DNA of 64,000 nt, from IMG/VR virus record IMGVR_UViG_3300029131_000181. One strand, written 5' to 3'. The translations under genes and the position numbers were made by a program. Shown one piece after another: positions 2,170 through 33,985 of the stretch (positions are counted from its first letter, which is position 1; each line of letters begins with the position of its first letter). The DNA comes from a virus. The notes beneath the pieces are model-generated. The model searched no databases. It had not been told where the DNA came from and saw only the letters and a list, made by a program, of their open reading frames with translations.

Positions 2170-2618
2170 ACTTCAATCGCCTCCTTAAAAGAGAGACATT
2201 TCAAAGCGACTTCCGTGTGAAAGCTGATTTGATGCGTGGGATGCTTGAATTTTGCCAACGCCCAAAAAGCTTCACGGCTAATATCACCGCTTAGAAAGTC
2301 GTTGACGTAGTTCCAAATGGTGTCATCCGCCATGGGTCCTTCCACAATATCATAGTCATGATGTTTGCCCGAACGACATATAGCAATAAAATCAAGCCAC
2401 TCATCACTCATTTCGGGGAATTTCTTAATATTTAGCATAGGAGATTCTGTATATTCAAACACGTTGACAATACCACGAGACCTGCCTTTTTTTGACCAGC
2501 GAGCGGCTTGTTCGTAGTTGCTAGTGCAATAGAATCCCCATGAAAAATCTTTGGCGTACCTTGTTTTTCTGACCTCAGGGTTGCGGACTATTACATCGCT
2601 GCCATGATACAGAACCAT
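2166..2618 (-). CDS. DUF3990-like protein
   Basis: N-terminus MVLYHGSDV... after start refinement matches the DUF3990 signature (M-x-LYHGS). AAGGAAG RBS 7 nt upstream of ATG 2618. Confidence 0.55.
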   Translation of the reverse strand: MVLYHGSDVIVRNPEVRKTRYAKDFSWGFYCTSNYEQAARWSKKGRSRGIVNVFEYTESPMLNIKKFPEMSDEWLDFIAICRSGKHHDYDIVEGPMADDTIWNYVNDFLSGDISREAFWALAKFKHPTHQISFHTEVALKCLSFKEAIEV

Positions 2619-2739
2619 TATTATCACTTCCTTGCATATATTATACTTGTTTTTATGTGTTAACACAATCATTTCGTATGATTTTGGTTCCTACGCTTTT
2701 TGCTGAAAGAACCCGAATCAAAGTTTCGTTCTAGGAGTA

Positions 2740-4173: not shown

Positions 4174-4190
4174 TTGTGGTCTCCTTTTCT

Positions 4191-4224
4191 AAAAAAGCCA
4201 CCGTTTCTGTAGGAAAACAGTGGC
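4191..4224 (-). terminator. intrinsic terminator between radical-SAM gene and ATP-grasp gene, abutting the ATP-grasp RBS
   Basis: Hairpin GCCACCGTTTC...GAAAACAGTGGC with U-run (plus-strand A-run 4191-4196), 20 nt after the stop at 4244 and about 10 nt before the RBS of the next gene. Confidence 0.5.
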
Positions 4225-4243
4225 AATGTATAAGTGATATGGT

Positions 4244-4984
4244 TTAGCTTGCAATGTACAACTCGCTGTTGGAAATGTTTTCCAGCCAGTTTTTGTTCAT
4301 TACATTACCAAAACGATATTTCTTCTGCGACTTGTAGGACCAATCGCAGCCGGAAACGACATCACCGATGGCGTTCAAGTACAGCTCGCCGCTGTAAAAG
4401 TCGATATCGCCGGTTTTGTTGAATTCGTATTCGAGCTTGTCTACATGAGGTTCACGCTTCTTATAGATATTCGAATCGAGATTCTTAGCACGCCCTTCGT
4501 TCAGTAAATAAGCCAGATGGAAGTCCGTTACCTTATCGTTACGGTTATATTTCAAGCCACTAAGGATACTTTCACTTTCATATGGGATTGCTTCGTGGAA
4601 GTTATCACTGCTGATGCAAAGACCGCACATATAGTCATCTTTTTCATCGCAGTAGGCCCACCACTCCAGACTCGCCATAGCAAGGTCAGCCATCTTATCG
4701 ACAGCTTTTCCGTTAGCGACCATGTAAAAGCTTCCAACGGCGATACCGCGCTCTTTGACAGCTTTCAAGGTGTATCGAATTGCCGGTATATTCAGAGAGA
4801 TTTCCCCACCGGTAAAGGTAAGAGAGCTGATATAAGCTCCCTTCTCAAAGTTGTCGAGAAAAGCATCGATGTACTTCTCCTGAATATCGATGCTTTCGGC
4901 ATCTCCGCGCAGGCAGTGCGCACAGCACATATTGCATCGGCGCGTAACTTCTATGAATACGTTGTTTGCGCTATAAATACGCAT
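4244..4984 (-). CDS. radical SAM domain protein
   Basis: CxxxCxxC cluster motif (RRCNMCCAHC) near the N-terminus, plus an FTGGE SAM-binding glycine-rich motif. 246 aa. Confidence 0.75.
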   Translation of the reverse strand: MRIYSANNVFIEVTRRCNMCCAHCLRGDAESIDIQEKYIDAFLDNFEKGAYISSLTFTGGEISLNIPAIRYTLKAVKERGIAVGSFYMVANGKAVDKMADLAMASLEWWAYCDEKDDYMCGLCISSDNFHEAIPYESESILSGLKYNRNDKVTDFHLAYLLNEGRAKNLDSNIYKKREPHVDKLEYEFNKTGDIDFYSGELYLNAIGDVVSGCDWSYKSQKKYRFGNVMNKNWLENISNSELYIAS

Positions 4985-5002
4985 TTTTTCATGCCCTTTC
5001 TG

Positions 5003-5329
5003 TTATTCTTCCTCGCAATCCTCGTAGTCGTCCATGAAGTTCTCGTTGCGGTCGACGACAACATTCACATCCGGCGGAGCGATTTTAGTCAGACCATAGT
5101 TCAAGAAGAACGAGCCGGGAATGTCATCGACATCGCCCCAGTTCCAGCAACCACAGTTGATTTCCAGCTGTCGTTTGCCTTCATCCGTCTTGAGATAGTC
5201 CTTGACAGCACTGCGCAGGACCGTTTCGGGGTCACGGATTTGCTCCGGATTGTAGCTAAACTGAATCAGTGTGCATTCCGTTGCGGATAAGCCAATGACC
5301 TCATTGGCGACGATAGTGAATACTTCCAC
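5003..5329 (-). CDS. hypothetical acidic protein
   Basis: 108 aa ORF with a strongly acidic C-terminus (DDYEDCEEE). Sits in an operon-like array. Confidence 0.45.
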   Translation of the reverse strand: MEVFTIVANEVIGLSATECTLIQFSYNPEQIRDPETVLRSAVKDYLKTDEGKRQLEINCGCWNWGDVDDIPGSFFLNYGLTKIAPPDVNVVVDRNENFMDDYEDCEEE

Positions 5330-5345
5330 CGTAAGTTCCCTCCCC

Positions 5346-5672
5346 TCACGCGTTGACGATACCGCCGTGCTTGGCCAGAACCGCGTCTACGGTTTCTACG
5401 GGCACATACCCGTAGACCGTAGCCAGCGGTGCCTCGTCGTCTTCAGCAAACGGCAGAAACTCTTCGACCTCCTCAGACAAGTAGCTGAGTTCGACCTTAG
5501 AGTAATTGCCGTCCGACAGGTCTTCGTTCGGTATGCAGTAGTGCATGCCACTTGCCTGAATCGACAGGGTGAAGCCGTCTGCACAAACTGCTTCCGGACG
5601 AAGTGCAGCAGTACCAAAGATGGTCTTGCTGAAGGTTTTGCGGAGAAATTCGTTGGTATTGAAAATAGCCAT
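5346..5672 (-). CDS. hypothetical protein
   Basis: 108 aa ORF. AAGGGAG RBS before ATG 5672. Confidence 0.5.
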   Translation of the reverse strand: MAIFNTNEFLRKTFSKTIFGTAALRPEAVCADGFTLSIQASGMHYCIPNEDLSDGNYSKVELSYLSEEVEEFLPFAEDDEAPLATVYGYVPVETVDAVLAKHGGIVNA

Positions 5673-14568: not shown

Positions 14569-14574
14569 AGCCAA

Positions 14575-14735
14575 ATTCGGACTTCCAACTTTTCACGGGT
14601 TGCCCCGTTACTCAGTATGGATTTCTGCTTCATAGAGCGAGCTTACCGCAAGCCGCAGCTCTTGATAGAGGCTCGCTCTCCACAGACTTTAAGATTCGGT
14701 CGTCCTGACCGTACTGTTCGCCTGTGGTTATGAGG
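14575..14735 (-). ncRNA. candidate TnpB ωRNA / right-end element
   Basis: The region overlapping the tnpB 3' end contains GCTGGC-gta-GCCAGC and GAGCGAGC...GCTCGCTC hairpins. The position matches where TnpB ωRNAs are encoded. Confidence 0.3.
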
Positions 14736-15837
14736 CGGCTGGCGTAGCCAGCATGTCCATTCCTTTCTTTAGAATGTTTTCTGCTGCATTTTTATCCCTA
14801 TCGTGTGATGTGTTACATTTCGGACAGACCCAATGCCGAACATTGAGGTTTTTTACCTCTTTGTTTTGGTAGCCGCAGCAAGAGCAGGTCTGGCTGCTTG
14901 GATAGAAGGTTGGTATTTTTACAACTACTCTTCCTGCCCAACTGGATTTATAATCAAGTTGTCGGAAGAACTCTCCCCAAGAAACATCGGAAATACTTTT
15001 AGCAAGGTTATGATTGCGAACCATACCATTTACATTGAGGTCTTCTACACAGATGATTTGGTTTTCTTTCACCAGTGTAGATGACAACTTGTGTAGGGCA
15101 TCTTTTCGCTTATTGGTCACTTTTTCGTGGCAGCAAGCCACCTTGATACGTTGCTTCTCCCAGTTGGCAGAACCTTTCTTTTTGCGTGACAGCTTTTTCT
15201 GCTCACGCTTTAGTTTAGCTTCCGCTTTCTGAAGATATTTATTGTTTGGATATTCTTTTCCATTGCTGTCAACAGCAAAAGATTTGATGCCAACATCTAA
15301 ACCGATGACGGTATCTTTAACCGGAAGCGGCATTACTTCTACTTTGCAAAGAATACTTACATAGTATTTGCCGCTTGCTGAGCGACGGATTGTTGCCTTA
15401 CAGATGCGTCCCTCAATGTTGCGACTCTTACGATAACGCATCTTCCCAAGTGTCGGAAGCTGAATGTACTTATCGTCAACTTTAATGCTTTTTGCTTTTG
15501 TAGTTGTATAGCTTTCTTCTCCCCGTTTTCGTTTGAATTGGGGGAACCCTTTACCGTCTTCGAAAAAGCCTTTATAGGCATTATTTAACTGACGACAGCT
15601 ATATTTGAGTGCTTGACTATCTACTTCAGCAAGCCAAGGAAGATAAGTTTTCATCTGAGGAAGCAGATTTTGTGTATCAATATAGCTCATACTTTCACCG
15701 CGCCGTTGATAAGCTTTTATACGCCTATCTAGCATAGAGTTATATACAAAACGGCAGCAGCCGAGCGTTTTATTGATTTTGACTTTCTGTTCTTCTGTTG
15801 GCTCTAGCCGAAATTTATAGCCTTTATGTACTTTCAA
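14728..15837 (-). CDS. tnpB: TnpB (OMEGA RNA-guided endonuclease, IS605 OrfB)
   Basis: Ruv[11 protein letters not shown], Ruv[10 protein letters not shown], zinc finger CSCCGYQN...[18 protein letters not shown] (RuvC-III). TTG start with AAAGGAGG RBS. Confidence 0.9.
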
Positions 15838-17283: not shown

Positions 17284-18807
17284 TCAGGCAGCCATCTTCG
17301 CTGCGGTTTTGCCCTTCGGACCCTTCTTCCGTGCATTGGCTTCAAGCTCCTTCTTGTTGGTATCATACCAAACCTCGAACTCCTTGAAGTTGTTCAACGC
17401 CCAAATCTCAGGAGAAGCCTTGCGACCGTAAGTTTCTTCCAACAGGTGGATAACTTTGCGGCCAACTTCTTCCATGATTTCGGCATCGTATTTGCCGCCA
17501 CCGCAGTAAAACCCTTCAGGCATAATAATGTCGTATTTAGGGTCAAGAACTTCAAGCCCCGGCTCCAAAACGCGAATGCCTTTGTAGCCAGCTTTGCGTA
17601 CAGCTTCAAATTTGAAGCGGTCCTTTTCGGCAGCATCTGCGTGCGGATATTTTCCATTATACTCATAAATGAGTCTCTGGATATGGTCCACGAAGTCTAA
17701 TCCCAAAAGACTATTTTCGCCCAAGATGTTTCGAACATCAAAGAAGGGGTTGGCAATTCCGTTTTCACCGGCAAATGCCAACATGGGACGTGTGTAAAAC
17801 CACTCCGGCTTGGAAATGGCATTGATTCTTCGCATTTTGCAGTCGTAGCATCCAGTAAGACCGTTGTTCACAGAACGAACAATATTGTTAATTGCAGCTT
17901 CGAATTCTTGCCCGCAATCACGGCATTTGAAGAAGGCTTTTTTGTTGCTTTGAACAGTTACTTCTGAAGCAGAAAGCTTGTTTTTACTACTCCACATGGA
18001 GGCTGCTTTCGGACATTGCGACGCAAGGTCATTGATGCCGGGAACAACCCTCCGACCTACGCAAACTAGGCATCCAGTGTTGCCGTTTTTTACAGCACAA
18101 ACAACATCTCCAATTATGGCTTTGAACTCTTGCCCACAATCCGGGCACACAAAGAAAGCTTTTTTCCCGCTTTTAGCTGTGACTTCTGAAGCGGAAAGCT
18201 TATTTTTATTACTCCACATAGCGGCTGCTTCTGGGCACTGTGACGCAAGGTCATTGATGCCAGGGGCAACTCTTAGTCCTCTGCAAACAGGGCAACCTGT
18301 GTTTCCGTTACTTACAGAATAGACAACGTGTTCGATTTTGGCTTCAAATTCTTCCCCGCAGTCCGGGCATACGAATATCGCCTTTTTGTTGCATTTGACA
18401 GCAATTTCCGAGGCAGACTTTTTGTTTTTGTTACTCCACATAGCTGCAATTTCCGGGTATTTCGACGCAAGGTCGTTGATGCCGGGGATAATCTTTCTTC
18501 CTGCGCAAACAGAGCAACCCGTGAATCCCTTGTCTACAGAACGAACAACATTAAAGATTCTGCTTTCAAATTCCTGCCCGCAATCAGGACACACAAAAGT
18601 GAGTTTTTTATTGCTTCCAGTAGTAACTTCAAAGGCAAGTTTCTTATCTTTTTCGCTCAGCATTGCAGCTACTTTTGGGCAAGCAACAGCAAGGCAATTT
18701 TTCTTAACCACTTCATACGGCATCTCAATGCCAAGAGCCGGAATAGGAGCGCAAGAAGCGCAGTTGCAAGAGTTAGCGTGCATCATAATTTTCATGTTAG
18801 TATTCAT
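17284..18807 (-). CDS. zinc-ribbon repeat protein (4x treble-clef DUF4379-like repeats) with C-terminal Vsr/DUF559-like endonuclease domain
   Basis: Four tandem ~75 aa repeats, each FVCPDCGQEF...GNTGC.VC.G...PGINDLAS...AAMWS.KNK. C-terminal IYEYNGKYPHADAAEKDRFKFEAVRKAGYKGIRV matches the Vsr/DUF559 E-x-DG...H...D..R...L...G..V.R pattern. Start refined to MNTNMK with AAAGGAG RBS. Confidence 0.7.
   Translation of the reverse strand: MNTNMKIMMHANSCNCASCAPIPALGIEMPYEVVKKNCLAVACPKVAAMLSEKDKKLAFEVTTGSNKKLTFVCPDCGQEFESRIFNVVRSVDKGFTGCSVCAGRKIIPGINDLASKYPEIAAMWSNKNKKSASEIAVKCNKKAIFVCPDCGEEFEAKIEHVVYSVSNGNTGCPVCRGLRVAPGINDLASQCPEAAAMWSNKNKLSASEVTAKSGKKAFFVCPDCGQEFKAIIGDVVCAVKNGNTGCLVCVGRRVVPGINDLASQCPKAASMWSSKNKLSASEVTVQSNKKAFFKCRDCGQEFEAAINNIVRSVNNGLTGCYDCKMRRINAISKPEWFYTRPMLAFAGENGIANPFFDVRNILGENSLLGLDFVDHIQRLIYEYNGKYPHADAAEKDRFKFEAVRKAGYKGIRVLEPGLEVLDPKYDIIMPEGFYCGGGKYDAEIMEEVGRKVIHLLEETYGRKASPEIWALNNFKEFEVWYDTNKKELEANARKKGPKGKTAAKMAA
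17930..18640. repeat. intragenic tandem nucleotide repeats (~225 bp units, about 85% identical)
   Basis: For example, 17950-18090 versus 18175-18310 align base for base with few substitutions. They encode the zinc-ribbon repeat units. Confidence 0.6.
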
Positions 18808-18837
18808 GATAGATTTCTCCTTTGTTATCAATAAAAA

Positions 18838-18888
18838 TAAAAAAGCAGCCACCCTTCCCTCTTTTGAGGGCAAAAGCGACTGCTTTAC
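18838..18888 (-). terminator. intrinsic terminator
   Basis: Long imperfect hairpin AAGCAGCC...GGCTGCTT with U-runs in minus orientation. Confidence 0.4.
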
Positions 18889-18927
18889 GTTCAATGGGTA
18901 TTGAGTTGTTATTCATGAAGAATTGCT

Positions 18928-19113
18928 TCACTCGTCCAGCATAACCTGCAAACGGGCGTTGAATTCCTTCATGTCGGCGCTTTCCTCGGCTGCAGCAAGG
19001 ACACGCGGATAAATTTCCGGATTCATGCTCTTCAGCATGTTCAGAGTAGAAAGAAGCAGAGGGTTGGTGATAGTCATAGTAAGCATCTCCTTGTTATTCA
19101 TAGTAATGTTCAA
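18928..19113 (-). CDS. small hypothetical protein (61 aa)
   Basis: ATGA overlap with the upstream gene. Confidence 0.35.
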   Translation of the reverse strand: MNITMNNKEMLTMTITNPLLLSTLNMLKSMNPEIYPRVLAAAEESADMKEFNARLQVMLDE

Positions 19114-19949
19114 ACGTTGGTATTCGTGCGATGGCCTTTCAGCGTGCCCTTGTTGAACTGTGTCAAACGGGCGTGCTTCAGAACAAATCCGTCTTCGAAT
19201 TGAACGTCAACGGCGTTTGTGCTGATGATGCGAATGATGGTTGCTTTCGAGCCATCATTCATGGTCTTGGTCATAGGTCCGCTATACTCGACCTTAAAAT
19301 CGAAAGGAAGCGGCTTATGCTTGGTGCAGCAGGGACAAGAAGAACTGCCGTTATTGATGCAGTGGACAAGAGAATTCACGTGAGTGACGTATTCTTCTCC
19401 GCAATCCGGGCATACAATGACGACCTTCTTGCAGCTATTGGCACTTACTTCACGCGGGGAGAAAGCGTTTTTGCTGCTCCACATTTTTGCCACGGCAGGA
19501 GATGTGGTTGCCAAGTCATTGGTTCCGGGAACGACTTTCATGCCACGGCATACGGGGCAAGTGAAGGTTCCATTCTCGATGTCTTTGACCAAAGAGATGA
19601 TTTTTGTTGTGTACTCTGCATGACAATCAGGGCATACAACAATCACCTTTTCGGGACTGTCACAGCGAACTTCGTCGGGATGAATCGTGTTTTTAGGACT
19701 CCACATAGCTGCAATTTTGGGATACTTGGTAGCCAAATCATTGACTCCGGGAACAAGCTTTTCGCTATGGGTTTCTTCGGCTTTGAATGCCGTAGTTACC
19801 TTACGGTTTTTGACCGTTTTGAATCGGCAGACAGGGCAGGCAGTTACGCCACGCTGCTTAGCTCTAACAAGGTTTGCCTCGTAGGTTGTGTATTTGCAAC
19901 CGCAATCGGGGCAGATGGTGATGACTTTTTCGTTCATGTTAATGTTATT
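19110..19949 (-). CDS. zinc-ribbon repeat protein (paralogue of 17284..18807), no recognisable nuclease domain
   Basis: Repeats ITICPDCGCKY...ACPVCRF, VVCPDCHAEY...CPVCRGMKVVPGTNDLAT, VIVCPDCGEEY...SSCPCC. Start refined to MNNINMNEK. The 5' extension overlaps a terminator and a promoter. Confidence 0.6.
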   Translation of the reverse strand, partial: NNINMNEKVITICPDCGCKYTTYEANLVRAKQRGVTACPVCRFKTVKNRKVTTAFKAEETHSEKLVPGVNDLATKYPKIAAMWSPKNTIHPDEVRCDSPEKVIVVCPDCHAEYTTKIISLVKDIENGTFTCPVCRGMKVVPGTNDLATTSPAVAKMWSSKNAFSPREVSANSCKKVVIVCPDCGEEYVTHVNSLVHCINNGSSSCPCCTKHKPLPFDFKVEYSGPMTKTMNDGSKATIIRIISTNAVDVQFEDGFVLKHARLTQFNKGTLKGHRTNTNV

Positions 19950-20009
19950 CATGATAGTTCCGGGTGCTGCTCTTGATGCAATCTCCACAGCGGGTCGGTC
20001 GCTTCTGCA

Positions 20010-20045
20010 AAACAAAAAGGACAACCTCAAAATGAGGCTGTCCTT
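20010..20045 (-). terminator. leader terminator between promoter (20101..20128) and the zinc-ribbon gene
   Basis: AAGGACAACCTC-aaaat-GAGGCTGTCCTT perfect 12 bp stem plus U-run. About 55 nt upstream of the start codon. Confidence 0.5.
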
Positions 20046-20100
20046 GCAAAAGCGGAATGTTAAAAATAAATTGGTAAGTGGTATCTTTGATACAACATCT

Positions 20101-20128
20101 ATCATAGCCATCTCGCACACATTGTCAA
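20101..20128 (-). promoter_or_regulatory. strong sigma-70-like promoter
   Basis: Minus strand reads TTGACA-atgtgtgcgagatggc-TATGAT (16 nt spacer). The spacer resembles the conserved element. Confidence 0.55.
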
Positions 20129-20130
20129 AC

Positions 20131-20168
20131 AAAAAAAGACCCTGCCCGCATTTTGCTGCGAGCAGGGT
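20131..20168 (-). terminator. intrinsic terminator after the acidic-protein gene
   Basis: ACCCTGCCCGC...GCGAGCAGGGT hairpin flanked by A- and T-runs. Possibly bidirectional. Confidence 0.5.
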
Positions 20169-20188
20169 TTGCTTTTGCACTGTTGTGC

Positions 20189-24844: not shown

Positions 24845-25981
24845 TTACATATCCGACTTCGCCGCATTACACTTCTTGCACAGCATCTGCAGATTGTCAT
24901 CAGTGGTATGTCCGCCCTTGCTCCAAGGAATGATGTGGTCGCCTTCCATATCCTCAAAGGCGTACTCGGTGTTGATGCCATTTGCAACGCACAAGGGGCA
25001 CTTGTGACCCTGCCGCTCATAGGCGCGGAGTTTCTGCGACTCAGTAAATGCACGAAGGGACAGATGCTTTTCGTCGCGCCAAGTGCGGTCAGAGAGGATG
25101 AACGGGACAATGCCTGCCTTCTTGGTCACGTCATCATCCAGCACGAGTTTCTTGATATCAGCGTCCAGAGCGTTGCTATTATACTGCTTTGCATGGTACT
25201 TGTTGTAGAGTAGTCCCCATGCCTGTGTATCCGTAATTCCCTTCCGCTTGGTCGGGAACAACATTTTAGCCCAGTTGATTACAGACTGGAAGTAAAGCCA
25301 GAGGTCATTGGCGTCCTCGTCATGCTGGTGAATCGCCATGTACATCTGCCCGGATTCCAGACCATCACGGTCAGCAATCCACGCCAGTGCCTTTTCCAGC
25401 AACTCCTGCCGAATCGGGTTACCTTTCAGGTATCCGTCAGCCATCTTCGCAGCAACACAGTTGCGTTTCGAGAAGTAGTTCTTGGCATCGGCCAGCCACG
25501 GTCCTGTATAAGTAGCGTTCAGCAGCTCCTGCGGAGTCAACACCTCACCGGCGATGTTGATGCGCTTGAACCATTCCAGTTTCTCGGCTTCGGAGCCTTC
25601 ACAGATATTCACGGTCAACTCGTAGTCCAGAATTTTCTGTTTTTCCTCATCTGTCAAGTTCTGGAAGAACTTGTCGTTGCCGTTGATTTTGACGGGGAAA
25701 TCCTTGTTGACATACTGTGCAATGGAAATTGTCCGCTGTTGTCCATCGAGAACCTCGTAGGTATCTGGACCGGTCTTGGACCAGTACATGAGGTTCAACG
25801 GGAATCCGTTCATTACCGAATCAATGACGGCTGCACGCTGTTTATCGGAGAAGCAAAAATTTCTTTGGTAGCTTGGCCTAATCGTGAGGCGATTGTTGTA
25901 CCCATATACGCCACTGTCTCCGTCATCCGAATAGTTCTCTACAAGGTCGGATACCTTGATTTTGGTTTCTGTGATTTTCAT
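24845..25981 (-). CDS. DUF262 (ParB-like NTPase, GmrSD N-domain) + HNH endonuclease fusion
   Basis: DGQQR motif (EVLDGQQRTISI). C-terminal HNH: CPLCVANG...EGDHIIPWSKGGHTTDDNLQMLCKKCNAAKS. Confidence 0.8.
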   Translation of the reverse strand: MKITETKIKVSDLVENYSDDGDSGVYGYNNRLTIRPSYQRNFCFSDKQRAAVIDSVMNGFPLNLMYWSKTGPDTYEVLDGQQRTISIAQYVNKDFPVKINGNDKFFQNLTDEEKQKILDYELTVNICEGSEAEKLEWFKRINIAGEVLTPQELLNATYTGPWLADAKNYFSKRNCVAAKMADGYLKGNPIRQELLEKALAWIADRDGLESGQMYMAIHQHDEDANDLWLYFQSVINWAKMLFPTKRKGITDTQAWGLLYNKYHAKQYNSNALDADIKKLVLDDDVTKKAGIVPFILSDRTWRDEKHLSLRAFTESQKLRAYERQGHKCPLCVANGINTEYAFEDMEGDHIIPWSKGGHTTDDNLQMLCKKCNAAKSDM

Positions 25982-26862
25982 AACAATTTCCTTTCTCTGC
26001 CCACAATGTTAATATCGTCAGCACTTTTTATAATTGCTTTTATTATATTCTGCGTCAACTCATATTTAGAAATTACATGCTTTTTGGCAGATGCATAAGA
26101 AGCGGCATTCAGACGCATCACATCCTTTTCTTTCGCATTGCGAATCAATCTATTCTCCTTTTGCAACGAAGAGTTGCTGCCGCATGATGTAACGCAGTAA
26201 ATTTTTGGCGACAATATTGTGATAACCATATGATTTGATAAACTATATTCTGTGCCTGTGTTATTCAAACAGCCTGTACCCAGCACAAGCCCTATATCCG
26301 GAAGTAAAATGGCGCTATTGTTTGCTTTATAGATAACGGTTCCTGAACTGTAATATCCAATTTTTACTTTATAGTAGTTCCACTCATTATCAGATAACTT
26401 TGGATGGTTCCCCGTCTGTATAAATTTCATGAAATTGCAAAATGCTTCTTCTGTATCGAACAGTTTTTTTATTTCGTCTATATACGATGGTAGCCTGAAC
26501 AGCATACGCAAGGCATACTCTCCAAGCCAATGCGCAGATTCTTCGGATATTCTATTTTCCGAATTCAAATAAGTTGTTTTATCAATTTCATTAAGAATTT
26601 CGTTCAACTTTTTCGCATCAGAATTCTCAATATCATTGCTCAGGAGTCCTTTTTCAATCTTCCCACGATAGCATTCGTTCCATTTTTTGAGCTCTGGATA
26701 TTCATATAAATTGTTTTCCGCTGCAATACCTTTTACATTTGCCCCTACATGTATAATTTTTCCAGTTTCCTTGTTATATACAAAAAAATTTCCGTCTTTT
26801 CCAGCGAATTTTTTCAGTCGGTATTTTGGCAAATAATGTTGATTTTCATTTTGTACCTTCAT
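25978..26862 (-). CDS. DUF4238-like protein
   Basis: N-terminal NQHYLPKYRLKKFAG resembles the DUF4238 HY(V/L)P(Q/K)F signature. Very AT-rich. ATGA overlap with the downstream HNH gene and about 17 nt overlap with the upstream MTase gene. Confidence 0.6.
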   Translation of the reverse strand: MKVQNENQHYLPKYRLKKFAGKDGNFFVYNKETGKIIHVGANVKGIAAENNLYEYPELKKWNECYRGKIEKGLLSNDIENSDAKKLNEILNEIDKTTYLNSENRISEESAHWLGEYALRMLFRLPSYIDEIKKLFDTEEAFCNFMKFIQTGNHPKLSDNEWNYYKVKIGYYSSGTVIYKANNSAILLPDIGLVLGTGCLNNTGTEYSLSNHMVITILSPKIYCVTSCGSNSSLQKENRLIRNAKEKDVMRLNAASYASAKKHVISKYELTQNIIKAIIKSADDINIVGRERKLL

Positions 26863-27955
26863 CGCCTTGCTTCCTCCTTTTTCTGATAAAAATTCTCTGA
26901 TAAACTGCAGAAAGCTGCACGCCATCAGGGCTTACCGAAAAGTCGCTCCTTCCTCTTTTAACAACTTTTGGTGACATCTTATCTCTTAATGCACCAGAGC
27001 CGGAGATTGTTACGCCATCCGCCTTGAAGAACTTAAAGCCAAGGCTTGTATAATCTTTATCGGCTCTGCAAGGCGTATCATCGAACATGGAACCACCAAC
27101 AATCTCAAACTGCTCCGGATTATACTTATCCAAAAAAGTGATAGGCACGCCCATAACGCCTTCATAGTCCACCGGAATATTCGCAACCCTATCCACATTG
27201 ATGGCCATGTAGTTATCATAGCGGGGGTAGCGCTCTTCCACGTCCGGCAGAGGGTTTCCGTCATCGTCATAGTACCGCTGCCAGAGAATCAGTTTCTCGT
27301 GGCGCTTCTGGATGTCGAGGTTAGTAAACCATCTTGTTAGACCGTTGATTTTCTTTGTTATTCCATTGGGGGTATCAAACTCGGATGGTGAGCTATAACC
27401 AATCCACACTTTGTTTTCTTTCAGAAGTGGAAAAAACTCTTTGTATGTAATGGCGTTCTTATTCCCGATAATCAGGAACTTTTTGCCGTGCTGCATCAGT
27501 GTGCCAACATACTCACGGAATAAGCTGAATGGCGGATTGGTCACCACGATATCACTTTCATCCAGCAAGTCAAGGCATTCCTTGCTCCGGAAATCGCCGT
27601 TGCCTTCCAGCAGGGTTTTTACACCGACTTCCACATCATTATCATCTCCGCCCTCGTACTCCATCTTGTAGGTTGGTTCGGTGTGGTCATAGTGCGTAGA
27701 AATCAGCTTCTTTAAGCCAAGTTCTGCAAAGTTCAGGTGAAAATACCGCCAGAAAGCGGACCATGTCGGGTCGTCACAGTTGCAGAATACAACCTTGCCT
27801 GCGAAATGCTTCTTGTAGTGCCGCAATTCCTCTGCGACATCCTCGATTCTGGTGTAGAACTCATCATTCTTCGCGTCCTTCGCCTTATGAAGGTTATCGT
27901 TCTTTGCCATGTCTATATCTCCCAATAAAAAATCCAGCACCGAATTACTCAGCAC
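26846..27955 (-). CDS. DNA methyltransferase (N6-adenine/N4-cytosine class, NPPF motif)
   Basis: DEFYTR ... FCNCDDP ... TNPPFS motifs. Confidence 0.8.
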   Translation of the reverse strand: MLSNSVLDFLLGDIDMAKNDNLHKAKDAKNDEFYTRIEDVAEELRHYKKHFAGKVVFCNCDDPTWSAFWRYFHLNFAELGLKKLISTHYDHTEPTYKMEYEGGDDNDVEVGVKTLLEGNGDFRSKECLDLLDESDIVVTNPPFSLFREYVGTLMQHGKKFLIIGNKNAITYKEFFPLLKENKVWIGYSSPSEFDTPNGITKKINGLTRWFTNLDIQKRHEKLILWQRYYDDDGNPLPDVEERYPRYDNYMAINVDRVANIPVDYEGVMGVPITFLDKYNPEQFEIVGGSMFDDTPCRADKDYTSLGFKFFKADGVTISGSGALRDKMSPKVVKRGRSDFSVSPDGVQLSAVYQRIFIRKRRKQGDEGTK

Positions 27956-29813
27956 TGGATGTATTTTCCGTATTACAATGACCGCATGATGTTTTCTTGT
28001 TTTCTACAAGACTTTGGGTTATCGCAAAGCATTCGTTTCCGCAATCACATTGACATTTCCATCGAGCATGACCGTTTTGGCTTCCTGCTCTCTCAATGAC
28101 CTTTAGCTTACCAAAGTGCATATTAGCTAAATCGTAAGTTCTTCCTTTTTTGACGAACTTATCGCGTGATGGATTTGCTTTCAAAAAGGCATCTGCTTCC
28201 TCTTCTGTCATGCTTTCGTATTCATTGGCAAATAACCAATGATATCCTCCGGCAACTGTACGTAGCTTGTTGCAGCAGTTCAAGATAGGCGAACCGCCGC
28301 TAATCCCGTATTTAAGAGAAGCCTCTTTTGCTGTAGAAAATCTCTCTTTTGTTTCAACGCAAATCACACTCTTGAAGTGTTTTTGTTTATAGCATTCAGG
28401 GCAGTTATGCCCGTATACTCTATCGGCTATTATCATCTTGTAGGAATGACCGTTTTTGCATTTCCACCAGCATTTTTCTGCAGACCCGGATGAGAAATAT
28501 TCGGGCTTCAAATTCTTGTTTTTTTCGTAATCCCATTCAGCAACAATTTCAGGATGTTCTGTAGCAAGGTTGTTCTTTTCGTTCCGTCTTCTTTTGCCTG
28601 TTGTACAAACAGGACATGTTGCGTTTTCTTTTGCTCTGCCATTGATGGGTGCTTCCCATTTATGCCCGCACTTAGAGCAAATCCAATGAACCATTTCTGA
28701 GCTAGATGATGACACCATCATCGGGTCAATGCCTACATTCAGTTCGTAGTCCCATTCTTTCAGGAGTTCCGGATGCCGTCCGCCCATACTTCGTTCAGCT
28801 TTGTAATCTTTGTATTGACGATAGATGTCTTTTGAATCCTTTTGTGTATCAATGTTAGGTTCAGAAACGCCAAGCATCTCTAAGCATTGGCGAATTGCTG
28901 CGTCGAGCGTTGCGTGCCCTCTATTGTTTTCTCTGATGATATTCTCGCTATTACGAATTTCCTGAAGCCCATGCTCGCGAATACGAATTATCCGAATTCC
29001 ATTCTGCTTGCATTTTTCGGACTTTTCTTCGTCATTTTTCACTCTTTTCTCATCAGAATGGTATCGAACACCATCGTATTCTACTGCAGTGCGAATGGAG
29101 GGGATGTAAATGTCCAGCTCTTTTCCAATAACTTTCTTGTTTCCAATAACAGCCTCTGAAAAATACTTTTTTGCATAATACGCTACTGCTTGTTCTTGGA
29201 ACGAGGTCTGTCCTTTATCGATAGTGCTGCATATCGGGCAACTCTTGATACGCTGGATGTAATGATATACGCTTGCCTGCCATTCCGTGCCACAAGCAGA
29301 GCATTTCCACCATACAACAATATTGCTTCCTTGTGTCAGCATACTGACATCTACGTCCTTATTTTTTGCAAAGTCATAGTCTTGCATAGCTTCTGCATTA
29401 TCTACAAGCATTTTCGAAGCTTCGGTAATGTGTTTGCAACAACCGCAAGACTTCACTTTTCCCCGCAGCAAAGAAGAGCGATAAGCAACAAATTCTTTTC
29501 CGCAGCTACACATACAGTTATAACGAATGTTTCTATGCCCCGTGCTTCCAATCGCATCTTCTGCCAAAGAAATAACTTTGATACCGTTGTGTTCTTCGCC
29601 AACCAAATCCTGGTATGTACGTTTACGGTCTTTACCTCGGCAGTCTTTACACTTTAACCCTTTCAAGAGCGCGTCGATACCAATTATCATTGTGTTTCCG
29701 CAGCAGTTACATTTCACCAAATAGGTATCTGCTTTTGAATTAGAGCCGGGGATAGTTTCGAAAACTGTTAAATCTCCGTATGTTTTGCCTGTTCTATTTA
29801 TTTTCGCCGCCAT
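27945..29813 (-). CDS. zinc-ribbon repeat protein with internal Vsr/DUF559-like nuclease motif (paralogue of 17284..18807)
   Basis: Multiple C-x2-C...C-x2-C ribbons (KCNCCGN...CKDCRG; WKCSACGTEW...CPICS; CWWKCKNGH...CPECY). AVEYDGVRYHSDEKRVKNDEEKSEKCKQNGIRIIRIRE matches the Vsr/DUF559 pattern. Stop overlaps the MTase start. Confidence 0.65.
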   Translation of the reverse strand: MAAKINRTGKTYGDLTVFETIPGSNSKADTYLVKCNCCGNTMIIGIDALLKGLKCKDCRGKDRKRTYQDLVGEEHNGIKVISLAEDAIGSTGHRNIRYNCMCSCGKEFVAYRSSLLRGKVKSCGCCKHITEASKMLVDNAEAMQDYDFAKNKDVDVSMLTQGSNIVVWWKCSACGTEWQASVYHYIQRIKSCPICSTIDKGQTSFQEQAVAYYAKKYFSEAVIGNKKVIGKELDIYIPSIRTAVEYDGVRYHSDEKRVKNDEEKSEKCKQNGIRIIRIREHGLQEIRNSENIIRENNRGHATLDAAIRQCLEMLGVSEPNIDTQKDSKDIYRQYKDYKAERSMGGRHPELLKEWDYELNVGIDPMMVSSSSSEMVHWICSKCGHKWEAPINGRAKENATCPVCTTGKRRRNEKNNLATEHPEIVAEWDYEKNKNLKPEYFSSGSAEKCWWKCKNGHSYKMIIADRVYGHNCPECYKQKHFKSVICVETKERFSTAKEASLKYGISGGSPILNCCNKLRTVAGGYHWLFANEYESMTEEEADAFLKANPSRDKFVKKGRTYDLANMHFGKLKVIERAGSQNGHARWKCQCDCGNECFAITQSLVENKKTSCGHCNTENTSSAE

Positions 29814-29958
29814 ATTGAATTTCCCTCTTTAATAAAAAATCCTATGCAGAATCTCTCTGCATAGGATGCCTTTTTACTTATTTGAATAAGGCTGTTTATT
29901 TCTTCCGTCTGAATCTATTATGTCACGGGCTGGTCCCCACAAAAAAATGAGCGTTAAA

Positions 29959-30013
29959 TGTGCGGAAACGCACAAAAAACGCACGCACACATTTTTTGAA
30001 TGATGCGTGCGTT
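29959..30013. promoter_or_regulatory. two palindromes in the divergent intergenic region: TGTGCG-gaaa-CGCACA and AACGCACGCA-N16-TGCGTGCGTT
   Basis: Perfect 6 bp and 10 bp inverted repeats. The half-site TGTGCG equals the core of the conserved promoter-spacer element. Confidence 0.5.
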
Positions 30014-30109
30014 TATGATAGCTTTTATTTAATGAAATGAGAGAATATATAGTGGCACTTCAGAGTAGGGCTTTCTGCTTTCCCCTGTACCCTGTCGTTG
30101 ATGGATGCT

Positions 30110-30236
30110 TTTCATTTGCGCCCGCACTTGGTGCAGACCCAGTAAACAGCATTTGTGCCGGAAGCTGTTACCTGCATCGGGTCGATGCGGGTGTTGAGCT
30201 TACGGTTCCAGTTGTCGCGCAGTTCCGGATGAAATT
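30110..30236 (-). pseudogene. remnant of a zinc-ribbon-repeat gene (3' fragment)
   Basis: Minus-strand translation FHPELRDNWNRKLNTRIDPMQVTASGTNAVYWVCTKCGRK* matches the E(H)PE...W...KN...CxxCG repeat unit. No start context. The plus-strand 161 aa ORF here is rejected. Confidence 0.4.
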
Positions 30237-30245
30237 TAGAAAACA

Positions 30246-30279
30246 CAAAAAGAAGCCGCAGAAACCTATCCTCTGCGGC
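30246..30279 (-). terminator. intrinsic terminator about 20-50 nt downstream of promoter P6
   Basis: GCCGCAGA-aacctatcct-CTGCGGC hairpin plus U-run. Confidence 0.5.
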
Positions 30280-30303
30280 TACACTTATTTATCTTATATT
30301 TCC

Positions 30304-30568: not shown

Positions 30569-31969
30569 ATGATTTATGTTAACCTCGCCATGCCCGTGAT
30601 TTTCTATAAGCAGCTGCCCGGCATCGCTAAGAAGCTGGATGTGGATGCTGATTTTTTGAAAGGCTTTCTCACCAACGCCAGGTGTTATGTCGAGGATGCC
30701 GGAAAAGGTGAAGTGCTTGAGCTGGACAACTCGGCCGACACGATAACGAAAGTTGTCGCAACCCATGAGAAGCGTTTCTATGGCGCGGAAGCCATTGTGG
30801 AATTCGCCAAGAGCAAAGGCGTGGATATTCCTGCACTGAACCATTTTGAACTTGGTGCAGATATCTCTGCCCATGCAACGGAAGACCAAGTTGCCAACAT
30901 CACTGCATTGGCCGCACGAGTCGAGCGCCTCAATAATCGGTACAAGAGTCTTGCCCGGCTTGAAGCCCCGGACGTCATCCTGATGAACGAAGCAAGGATG
31001 GTGCGTGACGCAGTAGAGCAGCTGGAAGATAACAGCGGTACATACTCCCCGGCTCTTGACCAGAACGGGGTTGCCTATCAATCCTTGAAGGATATTGGGT
31101 ATTCTCTTGTCACCGGTTGGGACAAGTCGGTACTTGAAAAGAACAGCAATAAGGATACGGAGGCCACCTTTCCCAAAGAGCCCGACTTTCAAAGGCTGGC
31201 ATCGCTGGTCAAAAAAGCCATCGGAACCCGCACACAGGGTAAGTTTGCGTTTCAAGCGGGGCTGACTCGTGGATATATCAGTAACCTTGCGAACGGCAAC
31301 GCGAAAGCTCAGCCGACCGAGAATACCATCAAGAAAATTGCAAGCGCAACAGATGCTGTCACGGAGAACGAGCTTCGTATCGCCTGTGGGTATGAGCCCT
31401 TGCCTGACGACGGGAAAGACAAGCTCTCTATGCAGCGTGCAAGCATGTCTGATGACGCATGGCAGAAAGACAACGTGGATGCATTCCTCTCTTTTCTGAA
31501 TGAAACGATTCCAATGTCCACTCCTCTTTCGTCCACTGAAATTCTTCAAGCTCTTTTCAAGGAAAAATACGGTGACAAGAACGACCAGATTCTGCTGGAA
31601 AAGGTCTCTGCCCCCGGCACCTATCGTACGGAAGGTACGGCTGCTAATGTCATTCTACCCATTCGTCTTTGTTGGTTCAGCTTCAAGCGGATGCTGATGC
31701 AGACTCTCTATGTAGGACTTATCGGGCATTACAGCAAAAACGATGAGCTGTACATTACCGGATACATTTCTTCTGTGAAAGAGCTGCATGACGCGGTTCC
31801 GGCGCTGCGAGGCGGCATTGATGCGGCCTATGACGCGAGTCTGCCGGAGGGAATCGACATCATGAAGTTCCCGGTATTTTACACGGCTTCCAATGTTCAG
31901 GAAGCATACAAGCGGGTCCAGCAGAAAATCGTCTCCAAAATTGACGAGTCAGCCGCCGTAAGCTTGTGA
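30569..31969 (+). CDS. hypothetical protein with internal XRE-type HTH
   Basis: 466 aa. Segment RTQGKFAFQAGLTRGYISNLANGNAKAQPTENTIKKIASA fits the Cro/C1 HTH. Confidence 0.6.
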   Translation: MIYVNLAMPVIFYKQLPGIAKKLDVDADFLKGFLTNARCYVEDAGKGEVLELDNSADTITKVVATHEKRFYGAEAIVEFAKSKGVDIPALNHFELGADISAHATEDQVANITALAARVERLNNRYKSLARLEAPDVILMNEARMVRDAVEQLEDNSGTYSPALDQNGVAYQSLKDIGYSLVTGWDKSVLEKNSNKDTEATFPKEPDFQRLASLVKKAIGTRTQGKFAFQAGLTRGYISNLANGNAKAQPTENTIKKIASATDAVTENELRIACGYEPLPDDGKDKLSMQRASMSDDAWQKDNVDAFLSFLNETIPMSTPLSSTEILQALFKEKYGDKNDQILLEKVSAPGTYRTEGTAANVILPIRLCWFSFKRMLMQTLYVGLIGHYSKNDELYITGYISSVKELHDAVPALRGGIDAAYDASLPEGIDIMKFPVFYTASNVQEAYKRVQQKIVSKIDESAAVSL

Positions 31970-32042
31970 CTTCAGTCATGAGTTAGGCGACTTTTCTCTT
32001 GATTTGTAATCTCACATATGGTATAATAATTATGGTGATATT

Positions 32043-32462
32043 ATGCAAATGTTCGTCAATAATAACCTGTCATATGGTAGAGGTTATGTTTACAATATTC
32101 AATATCATATTGTGTGGTGTACAAAGTACAGAAAACCAGTTTTGATAAACGAAACAGAACAATCGCTAAAAGAGTCTCTGCAGCAGACCGCCGAAACCAT
32201 AAAAATCAATATTGTAGAAATGGAATGCATGCCTGACCATATTCACCTGTTGGTGGAGTGTTCACCGCAGCATTTTATCCCGGATATGATAAAAGTGCTT
32301 AAAGGCAACAGTGCAAGAGCTATTTTTATCGCCAATCCGGACTTGAAGAAGCAACTTTGGGGCGGGCATCTTTGGAACCCAAGCTACTTTATTGCAACCG
32401 TCAGTGATAACACGCGCAAACAAGTACAAGAATACATTGCATCTCAAAAAATAAGAAACTGA
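32043..32462 (+). CDS. tnpA: IS200/IS605 Y1 HUH transposase TnpA
   Basis: HUH motif PDHIHLLV. Catalytic Tyr region NPSYFIATV. 139 aa. Confidence 0.85.
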   Translation: MQMFVNNNLSYGRGYVYNIQYHIVWCTKYRKPVLINETEQSLKESLQQTAETIKINIVEMECMPDHIHLLVECSPQHFIPDMIKVLKGNSARAIFIANPDLKKQLWGGHLWNPSYFIATVSDNTRKQVQEYIASQKIRN

Positions 32463-32480
32463 TGAAAGGGGGGCTTCGCA

Positions 32481-33812
32481 GTGAAAATCACTTCCAGCTA
32501 TGCTGTGGAAATCAAAAAGCAGAAAATGTTCGACAATACTATAAAGATTTATCGCGAAGCCGTTTCTTTCTTGATTGGTTGTTTTAACAAAGAATGGGAT
32601 TCTATTCAAAAAGTAGAGGGTGCCAAATCTCGAAAGAGTTTTGCCGAGAAGTTAATTCATACTACAAAATACAGCACTGCTAAATATGATTTCGATGCCA
32701 AGTTTTATAAGTTCCCTAGTTACCTGCGCAGAGCGGCTATTCAAGCAGCACTCGGCTCTGTAAGCAGCTACTACAGTAGCCATAAGAACTGGGAAGCAAA
32801 CGGCAAGGTTGACAGGGAGCCAAAACTTCAATGCGATAGATTTTGCTTCCCGGCTTTTTATAAGACCGTTATGTATGAGGAAAGCAACAAACCAAACCAG
32901 TGCTATCTGAAGCTGTATAAAAACAATGACTGGGTTTGGGTTCCTATCGCAATGCGTGCCACCGATGTCAAATACATCACGAAATACTGGTCACATTGCG
33001 AAAAGAGTGCTCCTGCACTCGAAAAGAAGTACGGGAAGTATTTCCTACGCTTTGCCTTCGAGGAAGAGGTAAAACTCTCCGAAACTGAAATTCAAGACAG
33101 GCGTATCTGCGCTGTAGACCTTGGTCTCAATACTGACGCCGTGTGCAGCATCATGACTGCCGATGGAACTGTCCTTGCAAGAAAATTTATCAATTTTGCA
33201 AGTGAAAAAGACCATCTGTATCATGTGCTCAACCGTATTAAGCGTAAGCAAAGAGAACATGGACCTAAGAGTGCTGCTGCTATGTGGCGTTACGCCAAAG
33301 CCTTGAATAACGATATAGCGAAAAAGGTTGCTGCTGCGATTACTGAATTTGCTGTGCTTTATTCTGTAGATGTGATTGTTTTTGAACATTTGTCATTTAC
33401 AGGCAAAAAGCACGGTGGCAGTAAGGCACAGAAGCTGTCGATGTGGAAGCGTAATTCCATACAGGATTATGTGGAACACAAGGCGCACCGCTGCGGTATC
33501 CGGATTTCGCGTATCTGTGCTTGGGGGACAAGCAAACTCGCCTTTGATGGCAGTGGTGCTCTCAAGCGTGATGAAACCAATCGTGCCCTTGCAACGTTTG
33601 CAAGCGGCAAACAATACAACTGCGACCTAAGTGCGAGCTACAATATTGGCGCTCGCTACTTTGTCAGAGAGTTGCTAAAACCCTTGCCAGCGATGGTAAG
33701 GTCTCAGCTTTCGGCTAATGTTCCGGATGTTGAGCGTAGAATCCAAGTTACACTTGCCACGCTTAAAGTTCTGTATCCTGAGCTTAAAAAACTCAGTACA
33801 CAGGCAGCGTAA
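32481..33812 (+). CDS. tnpB: TnpB (OMEGA RNA-guided endonuclease)
   Basis: RuvC-I CAVDLGLNTDAV, RuvC-II VIVFEHLSF, RuvC-III NCDLSASYNIGARY, CxxC-type Zn region. Confidence 0.85.
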   Translation: MKITSSYAVEIKKQKMFDNTIKIYREAVSFLIGCFNKEWDSIQKVEGAKSRKSFAEKLIHTTKYSTAKYDFDAKFYKFPSYLRRAAIQAALGSVSSYYSSHKNWEANGKVDREPKLQCDRFCFPAFYKTVMYEESNKPNQCYLKLYKNNDWVWVPIAMRATDVKYITKYWSHCEKSAPALEKKYGKYFLRFAFEEEVKLSETEIQDRRICAVDLGLNTDAVCSIMTADGTVLARKFINFASEKDHLYHVLNRIKRKQREHGPKSAAAMWRYAKALNNDIAKKVAAAITEFAVLYSVDVIVFEHLSFTGKKHGGSKAQKLSMWKRNSIQDYVEHKAHRCGIRISRICAWGTSKLAFDGSGALKRDETNRALATFASGKQYNCDLSASYNIGARYFVRELLKPLPAMVRSQLSANVPDVERRIQVTLATLKVLYPELKKLSTQAA

Positions 33813-33985
33813 GATGTACAGATGCTAACTGAGTTATTAGTTTTCTTGCGGTGATGGCTCCCGTCTGGACGCCTGAGCTGAGGGATTACCGTATCTTTCG
33901 TTAGAACGCCGCTACCCATAAAAGGAGCGGGAAGCCCGCGACTTTAGTCGTGGGAGGATTCACTGTAAGGCTTCCGTTATCGCTT
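33690..33985 (+). ncRNA. candidate ωRNA / right end of the IS
   Basis: Structured GC-rich sequence overlapping the tnpB 3' end and beyond (for example GCGGTGATGGCTCCCGTCTGGACGCC..., GGAGCGGGAAGCCCGCGAC). Confidence 0.3.

Follow-up and report, generated by a model that had tools for sequence, protein, structure and literature searches.

A predicted Type II-like restriction-modification pair with a variable cargo slot in a lineage of huge gut phages

In a 64,000-nt stretch of viral DNA (IMG/VR record IMGVR_UViG_3300029131_000181; hereafter the window), four minus-strand open reading frames (ORFs) between positions 24845 and 29813 encode, from 5′ to 3′ on that strand, a 622-amino-acid (aa) homing-endonuclease-like protein, a DNA methyltransferase (MTase), a DUF4238 protein, and a nuclease. 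We think it likely that these genes represent three independent layers stacked at one site: a Type II-like restriction-modification (R-M) pair formed by the MTase (M) and the nuclease (R), a variable cargo slot between the two, and a selfish homing-endonuclease-like gene. Each component is of a known kind (Type II-like R-M pair, DUF4238 defense gene, homing endonuclease gene). What appears to be new is that a minimal Type II pair provides the frame, that it does so in a huge phage, and that the slot is always occupied among the sampled members and is exchanged between near-identical genomes. An initial annotation, made without database searches, had described the locus as a tightly coupled four-gene operon. 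All four ORFs are present where it placed them, and profile searches upheld each of its domain assignments (DUF4379 with a weakly scored Vsr-like core, EcoRI_methylase, DUF4238, and GmrSD_N plus HNH). The operon itself did not survive comparison with homologous loci: as a unit, only M and R are conserved (in all 68 bacterial loci holding both), the M-DUF4238-R arrangement is confined to one narrow lineage of phages, within which DUF4238 is at least 78% identical, and the 622-aa gene, which has a terminator-like hairpin at its 3′ end, is present, absent, or elsewhere in near-identical genomes. The remark that the layout is not a textbook one holds only insofar as an independent defense gene has been inserted; the underlying pair is in textbook M-to-R order.

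The case for an R-M pair comes from a survey of bacterial genomes (one genome per species), which yielded 80 loci with full-length nuclease homologs at ~50% identity from Clostridia, Bacteroidota, Patescibacteria, Treponema, Proteobacteria, and cyanobacteria. Both genes were held by 68 of these loci, and in every one of the 68 an EcoRI-family MTase lay directly upstream of the nuclease on the same strand, with M and R abutting or overlapping (−11 to +14 nt) in 58. Ten of the 12 remaining loci end at a contig edge near the nuclease, and two have <1.3 kb of upstream DNA; in L078, the <1.3 kb upstream of the nuclease is taken up by other genes. Plasmids gave 43 full-length nuclease matches; those listed are annotated as DUF262, often with an EcoRI-family methyltransferase in the same match (“DUF262 domain-containing protein” together with “adenine-specific methyltransferase EcoRI family protein”), and plasmid carriers of the pair include Aeromonas, Mammaliicoccus, Ligilactobacillus, Variovorax, and others. 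We favor reading the nuclease and the MTase as the two genes of a Type II-like R-M pair, with cleavage and protection predicted. Because the nuclease is obligatorily linked to one MTase family, restriction would be blocked by modification rather than dependent on it. The initial annotation had offered as an alternative that the HNH enzyme cuts unmethylated DNA in an R-M-like module, and this is the version that the M-to-R linkage and the Type II profile of the nuclease favor; an anti-competitor role, which it also proposed, is plausible, the carrier being a huge phage.

The nuclease (378 aa; 24845..25981, minus strand), as characterized by Pfam, PADLOC, and AlphaFold2 (AF2)/Foldseek, combines an N-terminal ParB/Srx-like DUF262 domain (GmrSD_N, PF03235; E = 7.8e-20), with DGQQR at aa 79 to 83 (25747-25733), and, after a helical stretch in the middle, a Cys4 HNH domain at the C terminus (PF01844/PF14279; HNH E = 2.4e-13) comprising CPLC 328-331, D348-H349, N363, and CKKCN 368-372 (25000-24866). 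It fits the REBASE-derived Type II profile of PADLOC (PDLC03418, “REase_II”) end to end, with residues 1 to 377 aligned to profile positions 1 to 371 of 372 (E = 2.2e-129). DGQQR and the Cys4-HNH residues (D348-H349, N363, N372, and the Cys4 site) are invariant among 45 homologs. Activity of the enzyme is probable, and it may employ a nucleotide. Foldseek comparison of the AF2 model (predicted local distance difference test score, 82) related the N-domain to the ParB-CDP structure 6sdk and to BrxU 7p9k, a weak fold-level likeness (E = 4e-3), and the C-domain to small phage HNH nickases. A sequence search of the PDB with the nuclease returned zero matches, BrxU and SspE included, and Pfam profile searches gave no match to DUF1524. 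RefSeq names the homologs only as “DUF262 domain-containing protein” (>8,000 matches).

Two groups of known enzymes provide the nearest comparisons. With GmrSD, BrxU, and SspE (DUF262 plus DUF1524; Type IV and phosphorothioate-sensing nucleases), the window nuclease shares an N-terminal DUF262 domain with DGQQR and a C-terminal His-Me finger nuclease. In contrast, it carries a PF01844 HNH domain with a Cys4 zinc site instead of DUF1524, is half the length of GmrSD and about 200 aa shorter than BrxU (580 aa), lacks the long linker, always lies beside a cognate-looking MTase, and fits the Type II profile. The initial annotation had placed it among the GmrSD/BrxU-type modification-dependent nucleases; this assignment fails because DUF1524 with its long linker is absent and the gene is always MTase linked, and the enzyme falls outside the GmrSD family. 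Orthodox HNH Type II systems (KpnI, Hpy99I, PacI, NlaIII; PMC2441816) have in common with the window pair adjacent but separate M and R genes in M-to-R order with overlapping stop and start codons, a Cys4-zinc HNH domain, an N6-adenine MTase with NPPF, and dissemination by plasmids and phages. Of the 14 HNH subfamilies distinguished in the 2008 Type II classification (PMC2441816), none is an obvious fit for the window nuclease. Unlike the orthodox enzymes, it adds the N-terminal ParB/Srx-like DUF262 domain with an intact DGQQR motif for nucleotide hydrolysis, and literature searches found no Type II enzyme combining DUF262/ParB with HNH. To our knowledge, no HNH Type II enzyme of the 2008 classification contains a DUF262 domain. 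For the nuclease and its homologs, a better reading than Type IV enzymes is that they supply the nuclease in a Type II-like R-M family of very wide distribution, and censuses of defense systems need correction with respect to DUF262-HNH homologs.

The partner gene encodes a predicted N6-adenine MTase of the EcoRI family (354 aa from ATG 27910; 26846..27910, minus strand) with strong matches to EcoRI_methylase (PF13651; E = 3.9e-109) and PADLOC MTase_II (E = 1e-105) and with motif IV NPPF at aa 125 to 128 (27538-27527; TNPPF at aa 124 to 128). Its C-terminal loop (aa 273 to 354; 26846..27094, minus strand), delimited by a break in homology, by GC content at third codon positions (GC3), and by tail types, is hypervariable, flanked by conserved PITFLDKYNPEQFEIVG and Y.RI.I.K motifs, and has a GC3 of 0.40 compared to 0.59 for aa 1 to 272. 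Among loci L094 to L121, in which the nuclease is >91% identical, the loop is about 40 to 80 aa long and comes in several sequence types that are unrelated to one another, a variability too great for it to set the target of a conserved nuclease. Tail type is linked in part to cargo type, and the loop is best placed within the segment that is putatively exchanged along with the cargo. Elsewhere in the family, the MTases of Moryella indoligenes (L044, 332-1867) and a Ruminococcus metagenome-assembled genome (L057, 6062-8011) contain a tandem 12-nt repeat encoding (TDRQ)n, after which the C-terminal segment is duplicated in another frame; this arrangement may reflect phase variation of the MTase. 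Partial duplicates of the MTase C-terminal segment also occur in L020, L081, and L085.

Variation at the junction of M and R was followed in a phage-lineage set of at least 30 loci in which the nuclease is 91 to 98% identical and the MTase only 68 to 92%. The M-R gap in these loci measures 316 to 1,375 nt and is always occupied, by ORFs that all-against-all BLASTP divides into at least 10 unrelated families. Besides DUF4238, the cargo includes a TIR_2/ThsB-like protein (PDC-S66; five loci, E = 1.6e-21), a CAP12/Pycsar-type TIR protein (PDC-S35; E = 1.6e-22), and a protein with a weak DUF4145 match under the Pfam cutoff, while six families (clusters 2, 4, 5, 6, 8, and 10) are unannotated by Pfam and PADLOC. 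More distant relatives hold an unannotated 191-aa protein (L133) or a pair of CAP12-TIR and HEPN_AbiU2 proteins in the gap, and L137 is without cargo. Seven bacterial loci fill the same gap, with a Fic protein, a Phd/RelE-like pair, a trypsin-like protease, and a 927-aa ATPase among the contents (translations read by eye). Cargo genes all have a GC content of 32 to 39%, compared to ~50% for the nuclease. The exchange is clearest between the window and L111, which are 97% identical upstream (covering the 622-aa gene and the first 272 MTase codons) and 94% identical downstream from the nuclease start, with a TIR gene in place of DUF4238. Homology with relatives breaks inside the MTase at about aa 170 to 316, mostly near codon 272, and resumes 0 to 17 nt before the nuclease ATG, a pattern that fits repeated homologous recombination at several putative breakpoints. 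Two other interpretations of the gap genes were rejected. Cargo proteins of 185 to 340 aa that are mutually unrelated and include TIR and HEPN proteins do not fit a role as C-protein-like regulators, and the unannotated families are not divergent DUF4238 proteins at the sensitivity of Pfam and PADLOC.

The arrangement resembles embedded defense genes such as PrrC in the EcoprrI Type I R-M system and BrxU in BREX, in which variable, unrelated genes lie between the components of a conserved system. Such “guilt-by-embedding” has been reported for Hma, BREX, DISARM, and Type I R-M (Payne et al. 2024, bioRxiv 10.1101/2024.01.29.577857), and two cargo families of the window lineage match the PADLOC “PDC” candidate-defense models (PDC-S66 and PDC-S35). 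In contrast to those cases, the frame here is a minimal two-gene Type II pair on a huge phage, and the slot is occupied in all lineage members sampled and exchanged between near-identical genomes. Embedding is thus extended from large multigene systems to a two-gene Type II pair, in a phage rather than a bacterium. The slot also resembles the defense hotspots of phages P2 (old/tin) and P4 (PMC9122126) in its fixed position, conserved flanks, mutually exclusive AT-rich cargo, and turnover by recombination. It differs from them in that the flanks are themselves a (predicted) active defense system and the exchange boundary falls inside the MTase coding sequence. In practical terms, the few compact cargo genes found in the slot, which exclude one another and several of which are unannotated, are good candidates for new anti-phage effectors.

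In the window, the slot is occupied by the DUF4238 gene (294 aa; 25978..26862, minus strand), a putative AT-rich insertion between M and R that is identified by PF14022, its GC content of 35%, and the replacement of the gap in relatives. PF14022 matches residues 28 to 287 of the 315-aa ORF to profile positions 1 to 278 of 281 (E = 1.3e-17; 64.6 bits compared to a cutoff of 27), and the protein has the conserved QHYLP motif near its N terminus, at aa 8 to 12 (26841-26827), its conserved residues being Q8, H9, Y10, P12, E70, and R123. It is rare: 10 close homologs were found in 5.8 billion clusters and 18 matches in an exhaustive search of 1.84 billion representative proteins. Each contig looked up for the close homologs (78 to 100% identical) had DUF4238 sandwiched between M and R as in the window, within the same phage backbone, and no DUF4238 homolog lay near any of the 80 bacterial M-R loci. 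A single DUF4238 gene from a P2 hotspot confers strong T7 resistance in Escherichia coli (Rousset et al. 2022, PMC9122126). The window protein shares with that defense system (the “DUF4238” type of DefenseFinder) PF14022 over the whole protein, an N-terminal QHY(V/L)P, and its occurrence as a single ~300-aa, phage-borne gene in a variable hotspot. However, it is only 18 to 24% identical to typical members and is embedded in an R-M operon rather than standing alone. Across 55 nonredundant DUF4238 loci from metagenomes, R-M components made up ~3 of 87 immediate neighbors, which rules out a general coupling of DUF4238 to R-M; the usual neighbors were integrases, sigma factors, and PLD proteins. 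A T7 homopolymer tract within the gene (26783..26789, minus strand) is T8 in a metagenome copy (L004, near 9195), so that DUF4238 is frameshifted there while M and R are intact and 100% identical. Either a sequencing error or a genuine change, in the form of cargo loss or a phase switch of the cargo, could account for the difference.

The remaining gene (622 aa; 27945..29813, minus strand) has the hallmarks of a separate mobile element. It encodes three DUF4379 treble-clef zinc fingers (E = 4.7e-47) and a weakly scored Vsr/DUF559-like PD-(D/E)XK core at aa 232 to 291 (29120-28941), for which MTES_1575 (E = 5.7e-4) and DUF2726 (E = 2.1e-3) both fall under the Pfam cutoffs and PADLOC returns “HEase” (5e-5). 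It also matches PHROG 559 (E = 4e-39; labeled “HNH endonuclease”), 374, and 3339, families annotated as HNH/homing endonucleases. A 2.3-kb insertion unit (27936..30242, minus strand) comprises the gene and ~430 nt upstream with two hairpins. In L095 and L116, whose flanks are 96% identical, 30242-27936 is replaced by ~32 nt with a different hairpin. The gene occupies the same site in L096 and L111 but lies 3.5 kb further upstream in L102 and L119, and its site is taken by a GIY-YIG plus helix-turn-helix (HTH) gene in L092 and by a 437-aa gene in L087/L088. At its 3′ end, a terminator-like hairpin (27932..27960, minus strand; 13 pairs followed by TTTTTTATT), whose loop spans the 622-aa stop codon just before the MTase ribosome-binding site, also follows a 91% identical copy of the gene at another site in L102; hairpin and gene travel together. 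On the presence, absence, and relocation of the gene among relatives and the movement of its hairpin along with it, we interpret the gene as a putative independent, selfish homing-endonuclease-like element. Further DUF4379 paralogs lie 8 to 10 kb away at 17284-18894 and 19110-20180 (minus strand); both are present in the window and L003 and absent from L001, which provides further evidence of mobility of the family within these phages. Like free-standing phage homing endonucleases (T4 seg/mob-type; PHROG 559, 374, and 3339), the 622-aa gene shows sporadic presence and relocation, intergenic insertion just before a neighbor's ribosome-binding site, several paralogs per genome, and zinc-finger DNA-binding repeats joined to a putative small nuclease core. 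Unlike theirs, this weakly scored core is Vsr/DUF559-like rather than GIY-YIG or HNH. Two more terminator-like hairpins lie upstream on the minus strand: a bidirectional one at 29839..29867, directly before the ribosome-binding site of the 622-aa gene, and one at 30254..30280, upstream of the insertion unit, at the end of the conserved backbone. The hairpins around the 622-aa gene are not a target-site duplication, as the shared GGATTTTTTATT is hairpin tail plus T-run, and each variant carries such a hairpin before the MTase.

The initial annotation had reported overlapping stop and start codons at every junction, and this is correct for two of three. At the first of these, the end of the MTase gene runs 17 nt past the DUF4238 ATG, which is served by an AGGAGGA ribosome-binding site; at the second, the DUF4238 stop and nuclease start have ATGA (25981-25978) in common, and here too the ribosome-binding site is good. 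The third overlap, at 27945/27955, relies on GTG 27955, which is merely the first in-frame start of a long MTase form. Gene callers start the MTase at ATG 27910 in six assemblies, the Pfam match of the long form begins at residue 21, homology of relatives to the MTase region begins at 27935, downstream of that GTG, and GGGAG sits upstream of ATG 27910. Since gene callers, Pfam match start, and homology start favor ATG 27910, the junction is a 34-nt spacer, not an overlap, and it contains the 3′ arm and T-run of the 27960-27932 hairpin. The compositional drop that had been noted in the DUF4238 gene was confirmed (35.0% GC and GC3 of 0.35, compared to 46.1% GC for the MTase and 50.0% GC and GC3 of 0.64 for the nuclease). 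The suggestion that the cassette is mosaic is strongly supported.

Taken as three layers, the locus could operate as follows. The MTase would mark the phage genome by methylating a short site, and the nuclease would cut DNA without the mark, namely, the host chromosome and co-infecting or superinfecting rivals; cleavage may need a nucleoside triphosphate (NTP), DGQQR being intact. Recombination within the conserved body of the MTase and at the start of the nuclease would exchange AT-rich, single-gene effectors of the abortive-infection (Abi) type, often carrying the variable C-terminal loop of the MTase along. Because the DUF4238 gene is translationally coupled to both neighbors, it would be expressed whenever the R-M pair is. 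We propose that the cargo works on its own and adds a second layer of exclusion, sharing only expression and mobility with the R-M pair; such autonomy is favored because so few R-M genes neighbor DUF4238 genes and because DUF4238 works alone in E. coli. The 622-aa gene, with its own 3′ hairpin, would have entered the stretch immediately before the MTase ribosome-binding site and would play no role in R-M.

Several points weigh against this three-layer reading. The nearest non-phage relatives of the DUF4238 protein (~33% identity) are embedded in Type I R-M loci (hsdM-hsdS-DUF4238-x-hsdR), which hints that embedding means functional coupling and not pure hitchhiking. The DGQQR/ParB-like domain is otherwise known as a Type IV trait, so an unusual NTP-dependent or modification-sensing mode is possible for the nuclease. 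Literature searches located no biochemical data on this nuclease family, and a characterized REBASE prototype behind the PADLOC REase_II profile could not be named. Site-avoidance analysis of the window failed to reveal a recognition sequence: avoidance is dominated by GATC and other classic sites, and GAATTC and AATT are not avoided. It is uninformative on this point because a self-methylating phage need not avoid its own site. No recognizable promoter lies between the 27960-27932 hairpin and the MTase, and transcription of M, cargo, and R may depend on read-through from the 622-aa gene. Finally, the designation “phage” is based on IMG/VR membership and PHROG matches, and virion genes are absent from the 64-kb window.

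The main rival explanation is a guarded R-M system on the PrrC/EcoprrI or Ronin model, in which the cargo is kept inactive by the MTase and/or nuclease and fires as an Abi effector when an anti-restriction protein of a rival blocks R-M, making the embedding functional. Apart from the PrrC and Ronin precedents and the Type I loci just described, the translational coupling of cargo to M and R would suit such a mechanism, as would the Abi-like nature of all cargo types (TIR, HEPN_AbiU2, and proteins with an N-terminal transmembrane-like segment; sequences read by eye). The C-terminal loop of the MTase, which co-varies partly with cargo type, could then be a docking surface. However, ten unrelated cargo families would each have had to evolve binding to the same partner, the linkage of tail and cargo is broken in L100, and clusters 8 and 10 have one tail in common; DUF4238 genes, moreover, are seldom beside R-M genes (~3 of 87 neighbors), and the E. 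coli gene works alone (PMC9122126). We therefore regard a guarded system as unlikely, if worth keeping in view. With about the same low confidence, we speculate that the M-R junction of this DUF262-HNH/EcoRI-like family is a dedicated cargo exchange site in huge gut phages and that the unannotated families (clusters 2, 4, 5, 6, 8, and 10 and the 191-aa protein of L133) are new anti-phage/Abi effectors wired to R-M, for example via the MTase loop, that fire when a rival inhibits restriction. If this tentative and rather doubtful idea is true, R-M-wired cargo would be a Type II, phage-borne analog of PrrC/EcoprrI.

Two further explanations are less likely still. Type II R-M systems behave as selfish elements, and the locus might be a purely selfish addiction cassette, with the R-M pair kept by postsegregational killing and the gap genes acting as further toxins or addiction modules, at no net defense or exclusion benefit to the phage. 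The M-R pair is widespread on small plasmids, and some bacteria carry a Fic protein or a toxin-antitoxin pair in the gap, both of which agree with this. Yet bacterial loci mostly have nothing in the slot, whereas it is never empty in the phage lineage, which argues for selection specific to the phage lifestyle; TIR, HEPN_AbiU2, and DUF4238 are defense effectors with documented anti-phage phenotypes, and the nuclease is strongly conserved (91 to 98%) across diverged phages. An addiction cassette is accordingly improbable. We give very little credence to an integrated four-gene system, in which a GmrSD/BrxU-type nuclease attacks differently modified rivals, the MTase marks self, and the zinc-ribbon nuclease and DUF4238 are accessory subunits. 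The four genes do lie closely spaced on one strand, DGQQR-bearing DUF262 is common to GmrSD, BrxU, and SspE, and anti-competitor weapons make sense on a phage. Against this stand the missing DUF1524, the short nuclease (378 compared to 580 aa in BrxU), and the empty PDB search. Pairing of the nuclease with one MTase family across phyla is a signature of modification-blocked restriction, the 622-aa and DUF4238 genes are dispensable and replaceable in near-identical genomes, and a terminator-like hairpin separates the first gene from the second.

We treat the carrier of the proposed three-layer locus as a huge gut phage or phage-like element of about 250 to 390 kb. In the index of the assembly collection, 859 blocks contain the exact nuclease protein; the longest contigs with it, at 250 to 293 kb, come from human gut metagenomes, and IMG/VR relatives reach 389 kb. 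The four-gene arrangement is identical on all six contigs shown (250 to 293 kb; DUF4238 frameshifted in one), and it is therefore not an assembly artifact. Megablast of the cassette against phage and plasmid collections returned zero matches. Around the locus lie helicases, IS200/IS605 copies, and an IscB-like protein, with type I-C cas genes in some variants.

Several features of the wider genome are of separate interest. The window contains no GATC (~251 expected), and GATC is likewise absent from ~627 kb of loci of the same phage lineage (L087 to L133), AT-rich cargo genes included; the site occurs 2.7 times per kb in bacterial loci with homologous R-M and 41 to 46 times per 11 kb in L134 and L137, which are more distant relatives. 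This absence looks like strong evasion of GATC-specific restriction by the host. Other sites are also depleted in the window, including CTAG (ratio, 0.35), ACGT (0.53), and GGCC (0.54), as well as CCGCGG (0 compared to 11.6 expected), GCCGGC (0 compared to 12.9), and ATTAAT (0 compared to 7.4). In L087/L088, which are without the 622-aa gene, the R-M pair is preceded at 2400-5530 by three extra orphan MTases (one N6_N4_Mtase and two C5 DNA_methylase), which suggests stacked anti-restriction methylation. Huge gut phages appear to combine weapons with countermeasures, stacking an R-M pair, an Abi-type effector, and total GATC avoidance, with CRISPR-Cas I-C and orphan MTases in some variants.

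A second variable locus carries type I-C cas genes (Cas5d and Csd1) in L002 to L004, about 7.5 to 8.5 kb past the nuclease stop codon (locus coordinates; beyond window ~16000), and a UvrD-like helicase in the window (11848-14574) and L001. An IS200/IS605 element at 31948-33958, comprising tnpA (Y1 transposase; 32043-32462) and a TnpB-like gene (32481-33812), interrupts a large HTH-domain gene that is intact (628 aa) in L001 to L006 and of which the window retains a 466-aa 5′ part (30569-31969). Another transposase, of PHROG family 506, lies at 14728-15837. A 465-aa protein at 53107-54504 (minus strand) combines RRXRR (E = 5e-46) with HNH, the architecture of IscB-type RNA-guided nucleases. At 57112-60408 (minus strand), a 1,098-aa fusion of a T5orf172 (GIY-YIG-like) domain to a ResIII helicase may be another defense or counter-defense gene.

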